Virus record (IMG/VR): IMGVR_UViG_2563366824_000002
Span: 1 to 25,355 of that record
Source: a virus
Lineage: Duplodnaviria > Heunggongvirae > Uroviricota > Caudoviricetes
Direction: 5' to 3' (one strand)
Length of the DNA: 25,355 nucleotides
Below are positions 5,977 to 25,355 of the stretch, piece after piece; positions within the stretch are counted from its first letter, which is position 1; each line of letters starts with the position of its first letter. The notes below the pieces were generated by a model. It saw nothing but the letters and a program-made list of their open reading frames with translations. It had not been told where the DNA came from and did no database searches. The position numbers and the translations under genes are program-made.

Positions 5977-6050
5977 TAAAACTATAGTTGTTTTATCGTT
6001 AACAACAAAAGTTGTTTTATTGGTTGTTTTAGATATAACTGGTTGTATTT
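5977..6050. promoter_or_regulatory. Putative O_L operator cluster and P_L
   Basis: Clustered dyad-like repeats built from AACAAC / GTTGTT half-sites (AAAACTATAGTTGTTTT, AACAACAAAAGTTGTTTT, TGGTTGTTTT, ACTGGTTGT). The same half-site family recurs in the cI-cro intergenic region. Confidence 0.5.
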
Positions 6051-19639: not shown

Positions 19640-20239
19640 ATGCGTAAATTATGTGCTGTTATTCTGTCCGCAGTAGTCTGGCTGGTTGCCGCTGGTACGC
19701 CAGCGAGCGCAGCAGAGCATCAGTCCACACTAAGCGCCGGGTATCTTCAGACCCATACTGATATGCCAGGCAGTGATGACCTGAAGGGCATTAACGTGAA
19801 ATACCGTTATGAATTTACGGACACGCTGGGGCTGGTGACGTCATTCAGTTATGCCAATGCCAAAGATGAGCAAAAAACGCATTACAGCGATACCCGCTGG
19901 CATGAAGATTCAGTGCGTAACCGCTGGTTCAGCATGATGGCGGGGCCGTCTGTACGCGTGAATGAATGGTTCAGTGCTTATGCGATGACGGGTGTGGCTT
20001 ACAGCCGTGTTTCGACGTTCTCCGGGGATTATCTCCGCGTAACTGACAGCAAGGGGAAAACGCACGATGTGCTGACCGGAAGTGATGGCGGTCGCCACAG
20101 CAACACGTCTCTGGCGTGGGGGGCTGGCGTGCAGTTTAACCCGACCGAATCCGTGGCCATTGACCTTGCTTATGAAGGTTCCGGCAGTGGCGACTGGCGC
20201 ACTGACGGTTTCATCGTGGGTGTCGGTTATAAATTCTGA
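19640..20239 (+). CDS. lom: Lom-like outer-membrane protein (Ail/Lom family, 199 aa)
   Basis: Signal peptide; the C-terminus …AIDLAYEGSGSGDWRTDGFIVGVGYKF is identical to lambda Lom, and GINVKYRYE is shared. Confidence 0.9.
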   Translation: MRKLCAVILSAVVWLVAAGTPASAAEHQSTLSAGYLQTHTDMPGSDDLKGINVKYRYEFTDTLGLVTSFSYANAKDEQKTHYSDTRWHEDSVRNRWFSMMAGPSVRVNEWFSAYAMTGVAYSRVSTFSGDYLRVTDSKGKTHDVLTGSDGGRHSNTSLAWGAGVQFNPTESVAIDLAYEGSGSGDWRTDGFIVGVGYKF

Positions 20240-20292: not shown

Positions 20293-20303
20293 GTGGAGTG
20301 GAT

Positions 20304-22661
20304 ATGGCAGCAGTAAAAATCTCAGGTGTGCTGAAAGATGGTGCGGGAAAACCAATACAGAACTGCACTATTCAACTGAAGGCAAAGCGTAACAGCACCA
20401 CGGTACTGGTGAACACGGTGGCCTCTGAAAATCCGGATGAAGCCGGGCGTTACAGCATGGATGTTGAGTATGGCCAGTACAGCGTCACCCTGCTGGTTGA
20501 AGGTTTTCCGCCTTCACATGCCGGAACCATTACCGTCTATGAAGGTTCCAGACCAGGTACGCTGAATGATTTTCTCGGTGCCATGACGGAAGATGATGTC
20601 ATGCCGGAGGCATTGCGTCGTTTTGAGGCAATGGTGGAAGAAGCGGCACGCAACGCCGAAGCCGCCTCTCAGAGCGCAGCGGTGGCAAAGAAATCCGAAA
20701 CTGCAGCGGCATCATCGAAGAACGCGGCGAAAACCTCAGAAACGAATGCAGCTAACAGCGCACAGGCGGCAGCGACCTCACAGACTGCATCGGCAAACTC
20801 CGCGACAGCAGCCAAAAAATCAGAAACCAACGCGAAAAACAGCGAGACAGCCGCAAAGACGAGCGAAACCAACGCAAAGTCCAGCCAGACGGCAGCGAAA
20901 ACCAGCGAAACGAATGCCAAAGCCAGTGAAACTGCGGCGAAAAACAGCCAGGCTGCAGCAGCTGAAAGCGAGAGCGCGGCGGCCGGTTCTGCGACTTCAG
21001 CAGCCGGATCAGCAACTGCTGCGGCTAACAGTCAGAAAGCAGCGAAGACGAGTGAAACTAACGCAAAGTCCAGCCAGACGGCAGCGAAGACCAGCGAAAC
21101 GAATGCCAAAGCCAGCGAAACTGCAGCGAAAAGCAGTCAGGATGCAGCAGCCGAAAGCGAGAGTGCTGCAGCTGGTTCTGCAACAGCGGCAGCTAATAGC
21201 CAAAAAGCTGCAAAAGCCAGTGAAACTAACGCAAAGACGAGTGAAACAAAAGCAGCAGCTAGCGAGACAGAAGCAACGTCAGCCGCAACAAGAGCAGAGA
21301 ATGCAGCCCGGATTGCAGAAGATGCCGCTGATCCTGCTTCTGTCCCTCCGCTTCCTGATATCTGGCTACCCTTGAATGATTCTCTGGAAGCGATAACAGG
21401 GTATGCCCCGGGCTATAAAACAATAACCATCGGCAGTGATGAAATAACAATGCCTGTTAATGGCATATGCCAATTTAGCCGGGCTTCATCTGCAACGTAT
21501 ATTGATAAGTCCGGGCATATTACCGTGGCAGGGAATAACGTTCCTCGTTTTGAAAAATATGGTTTTCTGATAGAGAATCAGCGAACAAACATGTTCGTAA
21601 ATAGTTTTAATCCTGATGCCTGGAATAAAAGCGGTGGTATATCTGTAACATCATCAACAGATGAATTTGAGTTTAAATATGGACGTTTCACAGTAGGAAG
21701 CGACATAGCAGGAACGACAACAGGGAGAAATATATGCACAGTTGCTGGTAATAAAGGCATAGATGTGACTGGCGATGATCAGTACAGTAAAGGTCCGTAT
21801 GTTACCGCGTCGTTCAGGGTAAGAAGTGATCTCAATGTTCGCGCACGTATCCGTTTTGAACGGTATAACTCGGAAGGATACACTTTCCTTTGTGACGCCT
21901 ATTTGTCATTACAGACCCATGAACTACAAATTACGGGTGGTAATGCCCAGCTATTAACAGCAAACTTTGAAATCGATCCAGGTAGTGGATGGATATATTT
22001 TCAGGCAACCCTGAAATGTCTGCCAGAATGGGGAATGGTTGGTACGCAGTTGCAAATTGCAGCCGACAGAGCTGTGGGGTCTTTTGCAACAGGTGACTGG
22101 ATAGAAGTAACCACCCCGCAATTTGAGTATGGTGCTTGTGCAACATCCTTTATCATAACGACAACAGAGCCAGCTACTCGTGCATCAGATTTATGTAAAT
22201 TTCCGCTGATGAAAAATATGTATACCATGCCTTTTACGTTCATGGTGGAAGTCCATAAAAACTGGTTTATTTCTCATAATGCTGCACCGCGTGTCATTGA
22301 TTCAGAAAATCACCAGTCCGGGGGCCCATTTATTATGGGGTTTGGTTCTTCTGGAACTATTAGTCAGGACGGTTATTCGTATTGCGATATAGGCGGGGCT
22401 AACCGACGTGTATATGAGTCATGCGGAGTAAGAGATCTCGTTATGGGATTCAGGGTTAAGGCTGACGGCATGACATGCTCATTTGCAAATAAGCATATAA
22501 GCACAGAAACAAAAACAGTATGGAAATATATTCGTGAAGCTGCCGTGATTCGTATCGGGGGGCAAACGACGACAGGATTACGACACCTTAATGGTCATAT
22601 AAAAAACCTCCGTTTCTGGAACAGAGCATTGTCAGATACGCAGCTTAAGGAATACGTATAA
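20304..22661 (+). CDS. stf: Side tail fibre protein Stf with alanine/serine-rich repeat shaft and a divergent C-terminal lectin-like (LamG/ConA-type) domain
   Basis: N-terminus MAAVKISGVLKDGAGKPIQNCTIQLKA matches lambda Stf. Central repeats K(T/S)SETNAK(S/A)S(E/Q)TAAK. The C-terminal …HLNGHIKNLRFWNRALSDTQLKEYV is typical of LamG-type domain ends. The ORF-track start at 20298 is a GTG extension. Confidence 0.85.
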   Translation: MAAVKISGVLKDGAGKPIQNCTIQLKAKRNSTTVLVNTVASENPDEAGRYSMDVEYGQYSVTLLVEGFPPSHAGTITVYEGSRPGTLNDFLGAMTEDDVMPEALRRFEAMVEEAARNAEAASQSAAVAKKSETAAASSKNAAKTSETNAANSAQAAATSQTASANSATAAKKSETNAKNSETAAKTSETNAKSSQTAAKTSETNAKASETAAKNSQAAAAESESAAAGSATSAAGSATAAANSQKAAKTSETNAKSSQTAAKTSETNAKASETAAKSSQDAAAESESAAAGSATAAANSQKAAKASETNAKTSETKAAASETEATSAATRAENAARIAEDAADPASVPPLPDIWLPLNDSLEAITGYAPGYKTITIGSDEITMPVNGICQFSRASSATYIDKSGHITVAGNNVPRFEKYGFLIENQRTNMFVNSFNPDAWNKSGGISVTSSTDEFEFKYGRFTVGSDIAGTTTGRNICTVAGNKGIDVTGDDQYSKGPYVTASFRVRSDLNVRARIRFERYNSEGYTFLCDAYLSLQTHELQITGGNAQLLTANFEIDPGSGWIYFQATLKCLPEWGMVGTQLQIAADRAVGSFATGDWIEVTTPQFEYGACATSFIITTTEPATRASDLCKFPLMKNMYTMPFTFMVEVHKNWFISHNAAPRVIDSENHQSGGPFIMGFGSSGTISQDGYSYCDIGGANRRVYESCGVRDLVMGFRVKADGMTCSFANKHISTETKTVWKYIREAAVIRIGGQTTTGLRHLNGHIKNLRFWNRALSDTQLKEYV
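20690..21250 (+). repeat. Intragenic tandem and direct DNA repeats encoding the Stf shaft
   Basis: Repeated units such as AAGACGAGTGAAACTAACGCAAAGTCCAGCCAGACGGCAGCGAAGACCAGCGAAACGAATGCCAAAGCCAG occur at least twice (about 20860..20930 and 21040..21110), with shorter ACCAGCGAAACGAATGC-type units throughout. Confidence 0.65.
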
Positions 22662-22930
22662 TGCGGGATATAACATTACGATTCGATAACAGAGAACAGT
22701 TTAACGCAATTGTATATGACAGTGGCCTGTTCAGTCTTGAAGAAGAAAATGGGGTTCTTGTTGATGTTATTGGCTGCATTATCGATTACGAGGAGCCAGA
22801 AAACGAAAGATGTACAGGCATTGATCGCGGTGGTTTTTTCGTAAACATGAGGATTGTTGATGGCAGTAAAAACATATCTTCTTTAATGCCTTTCATTACG
22901 ACAGATCAGCATGTAAGGACATGGGCTTAA
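22661..22930 (+). CDS. Small protein translationally coupled to stf (89 aa), possible fibre assembly factor
   Basis: ATG overlaps the stf stop (TAATG at 22659..22663). It occupies the tfa position but does not resemble lambda Tfa as I recall it. Acidic. Confidence 0.45.
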   Translation: MRDITLRFDNREQFNAIVYDSGLFSLEEENGVLVDVIGCIIDYEEPENERCTGIDRGGFFVNMRIVDGSKNISSLMPFITTDQHVRTWA

Positions 22931-22942
22931 TGGAGTAAGACA

Positions 22943-23626
22943 ATGGTTACAAAAACAGTAATTCCGGGAGACATCACCACGCTAAAGGGAGATATTTCCT
23001 CAATTAACGGAAAAGTATCAACGCTTCAGACTGAGATGACCAGTGCAAAGCAGGATATCAGCTCCAGATACACAAAAACTGAAGTTGATAATAAGCTGAA
23101 AAACAAACTGGAAGTGAATGCTCTCGAAAGCGGTAATTATGGTGGAGATTTTTACCCGCTGACTGGCCGCGAAGCGTTTTATTTATGGGGGTTGGGCACG
23201 ACTACTGCGGCGGCAAACCTTTATCTTAATCCTGACCCTGCAATTTCGTCTGTACTGCGGTCAACATCGTCTATCCGCTATAAACATTCAGTAGAGACGA
23301 TAGATTCAGAGCACGCCGATGTCATTTTCAGGATGCGCCCTGTGTGGTACAGGTCGCAATGCGAAAATGACAGGCGTGACTGGGGGTTCTACGGATTGAT
23401 TGCCGAGGAAGTAGGAGAAATTGCCCCTCAGTTTGTACACTGGCGACCAGCTAACGAAGATGATGCTCCTGAAGCTATTTCCAGCAATGGCCTTGTTGCC
23501 GAAGGTGTAATGTACGAACGTCTGGTTGTTCCACTGATTCACCATATCCAGAAGCTGACAGAAAGAGTTGATGAACTTGAGTCAGAATTAAAGTTGTTAT
23601 TAACTTCCCGAAGCGATATCGGATAA
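22943..23626 (+). CDS. Coiled-coil protein with C-terminal domain resembling the intramolecular chaperone / peptidase S74 domain of phage tail fibres (227 aa)
   Basis: N-terminal heptad-like region (TLKGDISSINGKVSTLQTEMTSAKQDISS). Segment S-I-R-Y-K fits the SxRxK autocleavage motif, followed by …WGFYGLIAEEVGEIAPQFV…GLVAEGVMYERLVVPLIHHIQKLTERVDELESELK, similar to endosialidase-type C-terminal chaperone domains. GGAG RBS. Confidence 0.55.
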   Translation: MVTKTVIPGDITTLKGDISSINGKVSTLQTEMTSAKQDISSRYTKTEVDNKLKNKLEVNALESGNYGGDFYPLTGREAFYLWGLGTTTAAANLYLNPDPAISSVLRSTSSIRYKHSVETIDSEHADVIFRMRPVWYRSQCENDRRDWGFYGLIAEEVGEIAPQFVHWRPANEDDAPEAISSNGLVAEGVMYERLVVPLIHHIQKLTERVDELESELKLLLTSRSDIG

Positions 23627-23636
23627 AGGAGGAATA

Positions 23637-23930
23637 ATGGATATAACACCTTTCCTTCATGCACTTTGTGCTGTGGCTGCGCAGGTACTGGTTGGTCTTT
23701 TTACCGGAAACTGGGCTTACGGGGCGATAGCCGGTTGTACGTTCTTCATTGCGCGTGAACACACCCAGGCAGAATATCGCTGGATCGAAATGTTCGGGCA
23801 TGGCAAGCGAATGAATATGCCGTGGTGGGGCGGTTTTGATCCGCGCGCGTGGGATGTGGCAAGCCTGATGGATTTTGCTGTGCCGGTGGTGGCGTGTCTG
23901 CTGGTCTGGCTGTTGGTTAATCGTGGGTGA
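23637..23930 (+). CDS. Small predicted membrane protein (97 aa)
   Basis: Strong RBS AAGGAGG. Two to three hydrophobic segments (LHALCAVAAQVLVGLFTGNWAYGAIAGCTFFIA; FAVPVVACLLVWLLV). Family not recognised. Confidence 0.45.
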   Translation: MDITPFLHALCAVAAQVLVGLFTGNWAYGAIAGCTFFIAREHTQAEYRWIEMFGHGKRMNMPWWGGFDPRAWDVASLMDFAVPVVACLLVWLLVNRG

Positions 23931-24605
23931 AAAAAGGTGAGCTGTATATGCAACGGAGGAAGAAAACTCGTTGCTGGAAGCCTGGAAAAAGTATCGGGTG
24001 CTGCTAAACCGTGTGGACACTTCCGTAGCACCAGATATCGAGTGGCTTATTCAACCATAATAAACAGTATGTATATCATAGGTTATTAATTGTGAGTTTT
24101 TTCGGTGTGTTATTTGTTTGTTTGATGTTATGCTTTTGCGCCCCAAAAGGTTGTTTAGATGTATTTTATCAATTGATTTTCAATGTCGTTTAATAAAGAA
24201 AAATTAAGCAAGCTGGATGTTGGTTTTTTGTTAATTGAATGGTTCTAATAATGTTTTTTTACTGTTGTTGAATGTGACTTGATAAGAAATGCAAGTAAAA
24301 ATGATACTCTTTTTATTTTAAATTCAAACGGTTGACATATATATAGCAAGAGGTTTCAGGTGCGTTGTAGTGAGTTTATGTTAATAAAAAGTATAGTAAG
24401 CGTTGAAAAATGTAACTTTGAAATACGTTAGAATAAAAAACAATATACATATAATAATTTAATCTTAAATGAAATTTATTAAAATTTGCAAACTATAATT
24501 TTGTGTATAAAAATATAAATGCACATCATCCTGATTATGATTGTGTATTTAATTGGTTGTTATTTGACTGCTATCAACTTGTTTTAATTTTATGATAGGT
24601 GCAAG

Positions 24606-25355
24606 ATGGATTATGTTTGCTCCGTAGTTTTCATCTGTCAATCATTTGATTTAATTATAAACAGGAGAGTTATCTCGTTCAAAAAAAATTCATTGTTTAT
24701 TGTAAGCGACAAAATTAGAAGGGAGTTACCAGTATGCCCCTCTAAACTAAGAATTGTTGATATAGATAAGAAAACATGTTTATCCTTTTTTATCGACGTG
24801 AATAATGAGCTGCCTGGCAAATTTACTCTTGATAAGAATGGCTATATTGCTGAAGAGGAACCTCCATTATCGCTTGTTTTTTCTCTGTTTGAAGGGATTA
24901 AAATAGCAGACTCACACTCCCTTTGGTTAAAAGAAAGACTATGTATATCCTTACTTGCCATGTTCAAAAAACGCGAAAGTGTAAATTCATTTATACTAAC
25001 AAATATAAATACATTTACCTGTAAAATTACTGGAATAATCAGTTTTAATATTGAGCGGCAATGGCATTTAAAAGATATTGCGGAATTGATTTATACGAGT
25101 GAAAGTTTAATAAAAAAAAGATTAAGGGATGAAGGAACGTCATTTACTGAAATATTGAGAGATACTAGGATGAGGTATGCAAAAAAACTCATAACTTCAA
25201 ACTCTTATTCTATCAATGTCGTAGCCCAGAAATGTGGCTATAACAGTACTTCATATTTCATATGTGCATTTAAAGATTATTATGGTGTCACGCCATCTCA
25301 TTATTTTGAGAAAATAATCGGCGTCACAGATGGAATAAACAAAACAATTGACTGA
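24606..25355 (+). CDS. appY: AraC-family transcriptional activator AppY (249 aa)
   Basis: Translation matches E. coli AppY as recalled ([25 protein letters not shown]…); C-terminal AraC-type HTH (…[28 protein letters not shown]…). Very AT-rich gene and upstream region. Confidence 0.9.

Follow-up and report, generated by a model that had tools for sequence, protein, structure and literature searches.

Organization of the locus

The window analysed here, the whole stretch of 25,355 nucleotides, carries a lambdoid prophage at the E. coli DLP12/appY site, in which orfA, orfB and orfC are tightly packed 3′ of the side tail fibre gene stf. The initial annotation had placed three ORFs after stf, and their coordinates proved to be exact. 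The features of the region are the following:

20298–22661, + strand: stf, side tail fibre gene, 787 aa from the GTG at 20298 (Pfam, NCBIfam and PHROG matches)
22661–22930, + strand: orfA, 89 aa (ATG on the stf stop; phrog_1361)
22943–23266, + strand: passenger part of orfB, residues 1–108 (AlphaFold helices, homologue alignment)
23267–23626, + strand: Peptidase_S74 domain of orfB, residues 109–227, and stop codon (PF13884, PDB and Foldseek matches)
23637–23930, + strand: orfC, 97-aa three-helix membrane protein (strong Shine-Dalgarno; strongly conserved family)
23941–24060, + strand: 3′ remnant of tfa, the lambda-type tail fibre assembly gene, K-12 tfaX region (translation; RefSeq annotation)

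The tfa remnant, which RefSeq annotates as 'tail fiber assembly protein, missing N-terminus', is 98% identical to K-12 MG1655 and marks an older stf-tfa module replaced by the present cassette. Its presence at 23941–24060 shows that the module does occupy the position that tfa has in lambda, as had been claimed. The host-range cassette stf-orfA-orfB-orfC would thus have taken the place of an older stf-tfa pair. On the + strand, the interval from the 3′ part of stf to the end of orfC contained nothing resembling a promoter or a terminator. The four genes, which follow each other closely, may be transcribed together as a single late unit.

The same gene order recurs in the plaque-forming phages PhiR55_1, PhiR49_1 and IdasGreatGrand, and is also found in other E. 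coli prophages, a phage-plasmid and Drexlerviridae; the trio of fibre gene, orfA and orfB is present in four Drexlerviridae, which are virulent. This recurrence and the low dN/dS values indicate, at the level of sequence, that the ORFs trailing stf are more than chance reading frames. The three genes are a common, uncharacterised accessory set of the side tail fibre.

The side tail fibre and orfA

The probable true start of stf is the ATG at 20304, rather than the GTG at 20298. Stf is composed of a lambda-type N-terminal domain (Pfam phage_tail_N at 5–134, E = 3e-66), a shaft of Ala/Ser/Thr-rich repeats and a distal domain (about residues 349–787) of the GTA head-spike-fibre type, within which residues 424–629 match NCBIfam GTA_spike_fiber; phrog_1419 covers the full length of the protein. 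Stf is 99% identical to the Stf of PhiR55_1 (785 aa), and its distal domain is 39–46% identical to the lateral tail fibres of the Drexlerviridae KarlJaspers and PeterMerian.

The ATG of orfA does overlap the stf stop, sharing one base with the TAA (TAATG), and the protein would be made by translational coupling with Stf. It belongs to phrog_1361, of unknown function, and presented no Pfam, NCBIfam or PDB match and no detectable fold or family. Pairwise dN/dS values for orfA range from 0.14 to 0.39. Where the Stf tip is 99% identical, orfA is 99–100% identical; where the tip is 36–46% identical, orfA falls to ~31%. Moreover, orfA accompanies Stf even in contexts lacking orfB.

In its location directly after stf, its translational coupling and its co-variation with the fibre tip, orfA resembles lambda Tfa and the assembly proteins of the Mu/P2 type. 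On the other hand, it is half the size of Tfa and, in sequence and profile comparisons, resembles no Tfa family and no solved structure. From position, coupling and co-variation, orfA is probably a small partner allele-matched to the distal domain of Stf and a Tfa-like functional replacement, filling the role of Tfa without homology to it. It could act on the distal domain as an assembly helper or as a small component of the tip.

The Peptidase_S74 domain of orfB

ORF orfB, preceded by a GGAG Shine-Dalgarno 7 nt upstream of its start, had been suspected of ending in an S74-type domain, and the Pfam search was positive (PF13884, 26.8 bits, for a cut-off of 22 bits). The motifs on which the suspicion was based are all present: SIRYK at residues 110–114, GLIAEEV at 151–157, LVAEG at 184–188 and ERLVVPLIHHIQKL at 192–205. 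A phmmer search matched orfB to the C-terminus of the T5-like L-shaped tail fibre LtfA (8hqz_d, E = 1.6e-5) and also to MyRF (7dc3), and a profile match was found to S16 gp37 (6f45). In the AlphaFold model, the domain has a pLDDT of about 90+ over most of its length and ends in a long C-terminal helix (191–226). The top ten PDB-chain matches of this model in Foldseek correspond to three entries, all of this domain family: the ICA of MyRF (7dc3, probability 1.00), GA-1 (3gud) and endoNF (3gw6).

Alignment to LtfA, MyRF and pb1 assigns the nucleophile to Ser109 (codon 23267–23269), with Thr108 before it and Lys114 (codon 23282–23284) at +5, and not to Ser110, the first residue of SIRYK. The three residues T108, S109 and K114 do not vary among 31 homologues. 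They correspond to the scissile and catalytic residues of T5 pb1, Thr1263-Ser1264 and Lys1269 (PMC4690869). Sequence and structural model agree that orfB carries a genuine Peptidase_S74 intramolecular-chaperone domain, with its Ser/Lys dyad.

The passenger of orfB

The passenger begins with a conserved peptide, MVTKTVIPGDITTLK, which is common to the Drexlerviridae homologues and to a 346-aa protein of phage PhiR11_1. It is followed at about residues 12–53 by a helix with coiled-coil-like sequence repeats (AlphaFold helices 12–40 and 45–53) and a weak match to the coiled coil of the P22 tail-needle gp26, which agrees with the N-terminal coiled coil of the initial annotation. The 227-aa and 234-aa alleles of orfB differ by exactly one heptad in this coiled coil. 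A small tip segment then runs from about residue 58 to residue 108, where cleavage of the Thr108|Ser109 bond is predicted.

In long fibres of Stf-like and P2 H-like type, the stretch just before the cleavage point is homologous to this tip segment (P0034, P0035 and P0044, which carry either repeats of the Stf type or, N-terminally, a P2 H-type domain). Tip and chaperone together (about residues 45–227) are 57–64% identical, over the matched part, to the C-termini of longer fibres (P0033, P0035, P0039 and P0044), and in many tail-fibre families of PHROG the match to orfB is C-terminal.

Distribution, selection and exchange of orfB

A separate S74 gene with its own short stalk had been regarded as unusual. 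Of 5426 complete E. coli genomes, 740 have the gene. Matches spanning at least 80% of orfB come from 47 phage records, and it occurs also in a phage-plasmid and in virulent Drexlerviridae. Metagenomes contain many S74 proteins of about 130–400 aa, and those of 220–350 aa with the layout of orfB are common, so the supposed rarity does not hold. The S74 domain also keeps a passenger of ~108 residues, to which it remains fused in cis.

Over its whole length, orfB aligns to the last 240 of the 1385 positions in the phrog_3299 profile, and tip and chaperone are fused to longer fibres elsewhere. For this reason, orfB could be viewed as a leftover without function, in which the 3′ part of a long fibre gene with an S74 end survived a cassette swap and begins at an accidental ATG; remnants do occur at the locus, as the 3′ end of tfa. 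However, the pairwise dN/dS of orfB is 0.15–0.34, with low values in both halves (about 0.15–0.39 for the passenger). The start codon, the Shine-Dalgarno and the length (221–234 aa) are conserved among lambdoid phages, the phage-plasmid and Drexlerviridae, and the ORF, its start and 57–61% amino-acid identity persist to the Drexlerviridae, where synonymous sites are saturated. Because the catalytic residues are also invariant and indels come in whole heptads, the leftover explanation is largely refuted and we give it hardly any credence. As judged from its substitution pattern, orfB is a real gene under purifying selection.

Database names differ: RefSeq calls orfB 'tail fiber domain-containing protein', while 'chaperone of endosialidase' and, in the BASEL records, 'putative lateral tail fiber chaperone' are also used. 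In the sense of the BASEL name, orfB would be a trans-acting chaperone that folds the separately encoded distal domain of Stf and is absent from the virion. The two chaperone names favour this reading. Its location just 3′ of the fibre gene is the usual one for a tail-fibre chaperone, and in the ten contexts examined it always follows a GTA-spike-type fibre and orfA. The pattern of exchange argues otherwise. In HR12-1 and IdasGreatGrand, an orfB 91% identical is located behind Stf tips of 36–45% identity. Conversely, PhiR11_1, whose DNA equals that of the window up to about codon 8 of orfB and then diverges, has a 99% identical Stf tip and a 100% identical orfA, but pairs them with the 346-aa S74 protein, which shares only the N-terminal peptide with orfB. 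The plaque-forming phage 21 and ev207 carry related modules in the order stf-orfA-orfC, without orfB. In sequence terms, orfB is modular and independent of Stf.

In addition, the domain of T5 pb1 acts on its own fused chain, and cleavage needs a correctly folded preceding trimer (PMC4690869). The passenger of orfB is itself conserved under purifying selection, and no match to Tfa-type chaperone families was found in Pfam or NCBIfam. The initial annotation had offered a trans-acting chaperone and a short fibre as alternatives. The first is disfavoured because orfB does not co-vary with Stf and Stf/orfA modules exist without it, and we regard it as improbable; the second is favoured.

Proposed function of orfB

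The best reading is that orfB is a short trimeric fibre, an optional and exchangeable second fibre component. Three orfB chains would associate through the C-terminal S74 domain (residues 109–227), which would template in cis the folding of the passenger with its N-terminal peptide, its coiled coil, trimeric in this model, and its ~50-residue tip. Cleavage of the Thr108-Ser109 bond by the Ser109/Lys114 dyad would release the chaperone, and the mature trimer (~108 residues per chain) would dock on the Stf/orfA fibre by the conserved N-terminal peptide. Separate distal fibre proteins that bear such a chaperone domain and attach to a proximal fibre are known, as are secondary receptor-binding proteins docking through a conserved peptide at the N-terminus (PMC11990801; PMC13352976). 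We consider it reasonably probable that orfB is a self-contained mini-fibre of a host-range cassette, with orfA as the tip partner and orfC separate. No virion proteomics for any orfB homologue were found in the literature.

Some observations weigh against a mini-fibre. The conservation of the N-terminal peptide could simply reflect a recombination joint, as the divergence of PhiR11_1 after about codon 8 suggests; at ~108 residues, the mature product would be tiny as receptor-binding fibres go; and residues 56–101, the proposed tip, have a pLDDT < 50 in the monomer model.

The protein might also mature as proposed and yet yield a fibre-end cap or spacer, an intermediate of Stf/orfA assembly or a released factor. 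The tiny passenger, with a tip of ~50 residues, and the optional nature of orfB are compatible with such a product, as is a tip that differs comparatively little from allele to allele (with TTxxxAN…LRSTS almost invariant), unlike the typical hypervariable receptor-binding tips. However, homologous tip-plus-chaperone modules end fibre-type proteins, such as P0044 with its P2 H-type domain, and the position-equivalent 346-aa protein of PhiR11_1 matches phage tail fibres, T5-like ones among others, in their distal parts and at their C-termini. We therefore see a non-receptor product as unlikely, though less so than a chaperone acting in trans.

The proposed mini-fibre can be compared with two groups of known systems. 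By Pfam, sequence and fold, orfB belongs to the same domain family as T5 pb1, the T5-like L-shaped fibre, the K1F endosialidase, the GA-1 neck appendage and the MyRF ICA. It shares with T5 pb1 the Thr-Ser…Lys(+5) scissile/catalytic arrangement and with the whole group a C-terminal S74 domain placed directly after the passenger that it is expected to fold. The passenger of orfB, coiled coil plus small tip, has ~108 residues, whereas the fibres and spikes of that group range from hundreds of residues to over a thousand. In orfB, neither a β-helix nor a tip domain of the bullet type was recognised, and its cleavage and trimerisation are predicted.

The second group comprises multi-component or branched lateral tail fibres, such as the T-shaped fibres of BASEL phages with their chaperone-bearing distal proteins, and the KP32 system with its docking secondary receptor-binding proteins. 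The proposed mini-fibre resembles these components in being a short fibre protein from a separate downstream gene, with a conserved N-terminus and a variable body, and in being exchanged independently of the primary fibre. It differs in that attachment to Stf/orfA is suggested by N-terminal conservation and constant synteny, and in that the component is altogether missing in phage 21 and ev207.

The membrane protein orfC

ORF orfC has an AAGGAGG Shine-Dalgarno at 23626–23632, 4 nt upstream of its start, and three predicted helices, which confirms both the very strong ribosome-binding site and the membrane location that had been assigned to it. The family is strongly conserved and located directly after the last receptor-binding gene in temperate elements of sipho-, myo- and podovirus type. 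Pairwise dN/dS ranges from 0.08 to 0.48, and polar residues are unusually conserved (D2, H8, R40, E41, Q44, E46, Y47, R48, D68 and D79, with H42 in at least 90%). We propose that orfC resides in the inner membrane and is expressed together with the fibre genes, in a role that would be independent of fibre specificity.

It was also suggested that orfC could be a superinfection-exclusion factor. In this case, orfC would be expressed from the prophage as an exclusion or lysogenic-conversion factor at the inner membrane, for example blocking DNA entry or changing how envelope glycans are made. All full-length copies seen come from temperate phages, prophages or a phage-plasmid, and orfC is missing from the virulent Drexlerviridae that carry the fibre-orfA-orfB trio. 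In the P22-like JEP4, orfC is situated between the tailspike gene and int, where P22-like phages have their conversion genes. A small inner-membrane protein beside receptor-binding genes also recalls Cor and Llp, which adjoin such genes in T1- and T5-like phages (PMC13164509).

On the other hand, orfC has no homology to known exclusion or defence proteins, and both large Aeromonas phages (~235 kb) and coliphages of roughly 48 kb gave partial matches. In most contexts it lies 0–16 nt from the upstream late gene or overlaps it, and within the window no promoter-like site precedes it, which suggests late rather than lysogenic expression. Since orfC does not co-vary with the fibre allele, it cannot be receptor-specific. 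An exclusion or conversion role is possible, though less likely than not. Like Cor and Llp, orfC is a small envelope protein next to host-recognition genes; unlike them, to which it is not homologous, it lacks a lipobox, has three helices, stays the same whatever the fibre allele and is found behind the receptor-binding proteins of all three tail morphotypes.

Genomic setting and gene organization

The module downstream of stf, which encodes the side tail fibre (Stf, 787 aa), is a host-range accessory set of an ordinary kind, widely distributed and uncharacterised. The window belongs to a lambdoid prophage of E. coli located at the DLP12/appY locus, a placement based on the occurrence of appY downstream and of lom upstream of stf. 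The three ORFs that the initial annotation had recognised after stf, here named orfA, orfB and orfC, were confirmed with exactly the same limits.

Features of the module and its surroundings
19640–20239: lom, upstream of stf
22661–22930: orfA, 89 aa; start codon (ATG) overlapping the stop codon (TAA) of stf
22943–23626: orfB, 227 aa; GGAG 7 nt upstream
23637–23930: orfC, 97 aa; AAGGAGG 4 nt upstream
23941–24060: 3′ remnant of tfa (tail fibre assembly gene), last ~36 codons of a lambda-type Tfa, directly after orfC
24606–25355: appY, AraC-type regulator, downstream of the module and reaching the last base of the window

The region 22600–24100 is 100% identical to strain T-HYM1, in which the gene order is J, lom, stf, the three ORFs, the tfa remnant, appY, ompT and envY. 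In a simple scan, a terminator-like hairpin was seen immediately ahead of stf, and from the 3′ part of stf through orfC the + strand had no promoter-like or terminator-like site; thus, judged from the sequence, the four genes look like a single late transcription unit.

The tfa remnant shares 98% identity with the tfaX region of K-12 MG1655. The presence of a lambda-type tfa 3′ end right behind orfC shows that an older stf-tfa pair was replaced by the present cassette, and the remnant is the scar of that replacement. Within stf, 42-bp and 189-bp tandem repeats at 20804–21254 encode the Ala/Ser/Thr/Lys-rich shaft (…AAKTSETNAKSSQT…). In the window, stf is one intact 787-aa ORF, 99% identical to the Stf of phage PhiR55_1; in RefSeq, the T-HYM1 stf is annotated as a pseudogene plus a separate 'head spike fiber' CDS.

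The S74 chaperone domain of orfB

orfB carries a genuine intramolecular-chaperone domain of the Peptidase_S74 family, for which trimerisation-dependent autoproteolysis is predicted. The protein scored 26.8 bits against Pfam PF13884 (cut-off 22; residues 109–165), and the cut-off was also passed by the homologues of element HR12-1 (27.5), the Drexlerviridae phage PeterMerian (22.6) and phage PhiR11_1 (50.4). In PHROG, the matches of orfB were to numerous tail-fibre families, at their C-terminal ends. The phmmer search against PDB sequences recovered a T5-like L-shaped fibre at its C-terminus (8hqz_d, E = 1.6e-5) and also the MyRF ICA domain, while a profile of 31 orfB homologues matched S16 gp37 (6f45).

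Residues T108, S109 and K114 are invariant in the alignment of the 31 homologues, and they align with the equivalent residues of T5-like LtfA and MyRF. They correspond to the scissile bond Thr1263–Ser1264 and to Lys1269 of T5 pb1 (PMC4690869), that is, the orfB sequence has the Thr/x–Ser bond with a Lys at +5 of S74 proteins.

The AlphaFold model, obtained with an alignment of 64 sequences, reached a pLDDT of ~90+ across most of residues 120–226, with helices at 12–40 and 45–53 and low confidence at residues 56–101. The model shows the expected fold, in which a long C-terminal helix comes after a mixed α/β part. The top ten PDB-chain matches in Foldseek comprised 7dc3 (MyRF ICA; E = 1e-4, probability 1.00), 3gud (GA-1 appendage chaperone) and 3gw6 (endoNF chaperone); matches beyond these ten were noise. 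The domain occupies residues 109–227 of 227, after a coiled-coil-like helix and a tip segment under purifying selection, and is C-terminal to its passenger (residues 1–108), as in the S74 family. Since an S74-like fold is detected, the domain call of the initial annotation stands, with the Pfam score, the PDB sequence matches, the invariant residues and Foldseek in its favour.

Co-variation of the Stf tip, orfA and orfB

The Stf tip (distal domain, residues 349–787), orfA and orfB of the comparison phages and element were compared with the window alleles.

Identity of the Stf tip, orfA and orfB to the window alleles
PhiR55_1: Stf tip 99.8%; orfA 98.9%; orfB 100%, 227 aa
PhiR11_1: Stf tip 99.1%; orfA 100%; in the orfB slot, a different 346-aa protein with S74 from residue 227
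HR12-1: Stf tip 36%; orfA 31%; orfB 91%, 234 aa
IdasGreatGrand: Stf tip 45%; orfA 32%; orfB 91%, 234 aa
ev207: Stf tip 42%; orfA 32%; orfB absent
Phage 21: stf-orfA present, without orfB
KarlJaspers (Drexlerviridae): Stf tip 39%; orfA 31%; orfB 61%
PeterMerian (Drexlerviridae): Stf tip 46%; orfA 31%; orfB 57%

The identity of orfA follows that of the Stf tip, and the identity of orfB does not. orfA is 99–100% identical when it accompanies a near-identical tip, against ~31% with divergent tips. Like Tfa, it is encoded directly behind the fibre gene and is matched to the distal domain. Because of this position, coupling and co-variation, orfA is likely the counterpart of Tfa for this Stf tip, by analogy rather than by family membership, as neither sequence nor profile placed it in any known Tfa family. 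There were no matches to orfA in Pfam, NCBIfam, PADLOC or PDB, and its only PHROG match was phrog_1361, annotated as function unknown. Across 1.8 billion representatives, the exhaustive search matched orfA only six times and to no annotated family; a word-indexed search gave fragments only. A cadherin/Ig-like domain, considered from weak matches to proteins with cadherin-like or Ig-like repeats (E ~4e-6), was ruled out by a profile–profile probability of 0.4% and a PDB profile search with nothing significant.

In these comparisons, orfB behaves as an exchangeable, optional cassette, with the DNA joint inside its first 8–15 codons. The initial annotation had left two roles for it, a trans-acting chaperone or a short fibre, and the co-variation favours the latter. 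A chaperone dedicated to Stf is the role suggested by the database labels of the Drexlerviridae homologues ('putative lateral tail fiber chaperone' or 'chaperone of endosialidase'). Such a protein should be specifically paired with, and required by, its client fibre, which orfB does not show: a 91%-identical orfB is paired with Stf tips only 36–45% identical, the window Stf tip occurs in PhiR11_1 with the different 346-aa protein, and phage 21 and ev207 carry stf-orfA without it. Being exchangeable and optional, orfB thus argues against this role, and the label of fibre chaperone is corrected by these data.

The 346-aa gene of PhiR11_1 (locus L005, 5344–6384) occupies the position equivalent to orfB and represents a natural allele swap behind identical Stf and orfA. 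Its product has only the first residues in common with orfB (MVTKTVIP…; ~37–50 residues in BLAST, 47% identity), and its C-terminal part resembles the distal/C-terminal ends of T5-like, rV5-like, 9g-like and other phage tail fibres.

Distribution and selection of orfB

orfB DNA, at an identity of at least 90%, was found in 740 of 5426 complete E. coli genomes, in up to three places per genome, and all copies among the matches listed bear the label 'tail fiber domain-containing protein'. Free-standing homologues (221–234 aa) are present in the plaque-forming temperate phages PhiR55_1, PhiR49_1 and IdasGreatGrand, as well as in a pLF82-like phage-plasmid and in virulent Drexlerviridae (Tempevirinae). 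A free-standing S74 gene, initially taken as unusual, is therefore not so. No literature on free-standing S74 proteins and no virion proteomics of the homologues were found in our searches; the BASEL papers annotate the homologues without discussing them.

Pairwise dN/dS ranged from 0.15 to 0.34 for the whole protein, from ~0.15 to 0.39 for residues 1–109 and from ~0.1 to 0.27 for the chaperone part. The ORF is kept as far as Drexlerviridae, at 57–61% amino acid identity, despite saturated synonymous sites. A decaying remnant is excluded in practice by this wide spread, purifying dN/dS and persistence of the ORF.

orfB as a proposed mini-fibre

The orfB passenger resembles a fibre terminus. 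From residue ~45 to 227, orfB shares 57–64% identity, in the matched part only, with the C-terminal end of longer fibre proteins, two of which (P0034 and P0035) carry lambda/T4-type 'ATKLQTAR…FDGS' repeats, and a third (P0044) a P2 H-type N-terminal domain. At its N-terminus, orfB is similar to the P22 tail needle in its trimeric coiled coil. The length difference between the 227-aa and 234-aa alleles is a single heptad, a 21-nt indel in the coiled coil. This indel lies at 22985–23005 in the window and at 5980–6021 in locus L002. Other homologues present larger indels of a repeated coiled-coil segment, and the stalk length varies in repeat-sized steps.

Separate distal fibre proteins with an S74-type chaperone domain, attached to a proximal fibre, have been described (PMC11990801), and another report describes secondary receptor-binding proteins docking via a conserved N-terminal peptide (PMC13352976). 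The best reading of orfB is a self-folding, self-cutting mini-fibre on the Stf/orfA fibre. It would fold with its own cis chaperone and be cleaved by itself at Thr108|Ser109, the mature form would be a trimer of ~108 residues per chain, and this trimer may join the Stf/orfA fibre through its N-terminal peptide.

Implications for fibre exchange

Side tail fibres make the first phage–host contact in lambdoid phages and are being engineered for retargeting, so that it is useful to know which downstream genes have to accompany a fibre allele. The alleles compared here indicate that orfA has to accompany its Stf tip and that orfB, the proposed S74 mini-fibre, is exchanged independently; orfC stays constant across alleles. 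Practical cassette boundaries are the N-terminal part of stf, the joint at about codon 8–15 of orfB, and orfC.

The orfC family

Within the module, the loose end of greatest interest is the family to which orfC belongs. This family has 583 homologues of ~95–102 aa, with an identity still at 57–69% in Aeromonas, Comamonas, Leclercia and Salmonella, and orfC is ~96% identical regardless of the stf, orfA or orfB allele. In an alignment of 35 sequences, 26 columns were invariant, many being polar (D2, H8, Q16, R40, E41, Q44, E46, Y47, R48, D68 and D79), and AlphaFold predicted three helices (pLDDT 93.9). The family has no Pfam entry, fold searches and defence profiles were uninformative, and the PADLOC defence-system profiles gave nothing for orfA, orfB or orfC. 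A holin or a colicin immunity protein had no profile support, and holins do not typically have polar residues conserved this strongly.

In very different elements, orfC starts 0–65 nt past, or overlapping, the last receptor-binding gene.

Genes adjacent to orfC homologues
Phage 21 and ev207 (lambdoid): orfA homologue upstream
pLF82-like phage-plasmid: orfB homologue upstream
P22-like JEP4: tailspike upstream
P2-like prophages of Leclercia and Aeromonas: S74-ended fibres of 939 aa and 964 aa upstream
Citrobacter prophage: pectate-lyase-type tailspike upstream
Salmonella element: orfC between two tailspike genes
Comamonas prophage: 72-aa ORF following a GpJ-like gene upstream

This placement is independent of the fold of the upstream receptor-binding protein. 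Our literature search found nothing on membrane proteins encoded downstream of tailspike genes. Because it is placed after receptor-binding genes in all three tail types, the family is a cheap and well-defined functional target.

The superinfection-exclusion factor proposed in the initial annotation is a guess, and orfC showed no homology to any described family of exclusion or defence proteins. The gene is missing from those virulent Drexlerviridae in which the fibre, orfA and orfB occur together, as fits an accessory function of temperate phages; a late-cycle role fits equally well, given that orfC is tightly coupled to late genes and lacks an obvious promoter. We consider it possible, at a rather low probability, that the family is a new accessory of receptor-binding modules and, separately, that orfB is the smallest known S74-matured fibre, giving with Stf/orfA a branched side fibre. 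Under the first of these, orfC, a three-helix inner-membrane protein with an invariant polar set (Asp, His, Arg, Glu, Gln, Tyr) and a translational link to whichever tailspike or tail-fibre gene comes last in lambdoid, P22-like and P2-like temperate phages and in phage-plasmids, would act on a conserved envelope/glycan-assembly step or on DNA entry, independently of receptor specificity.

Two orfC copies are not adjacent to a receptor-binding gene. A lone homologue on the Aeromonas rivipollensis chromosome (locus L011, 5001–5309), with no phage genes within 5 kb, has ordinary chromosomal genes as neighbours: a pirin, a RIO1 kinase and two lipid A acyltransferases.
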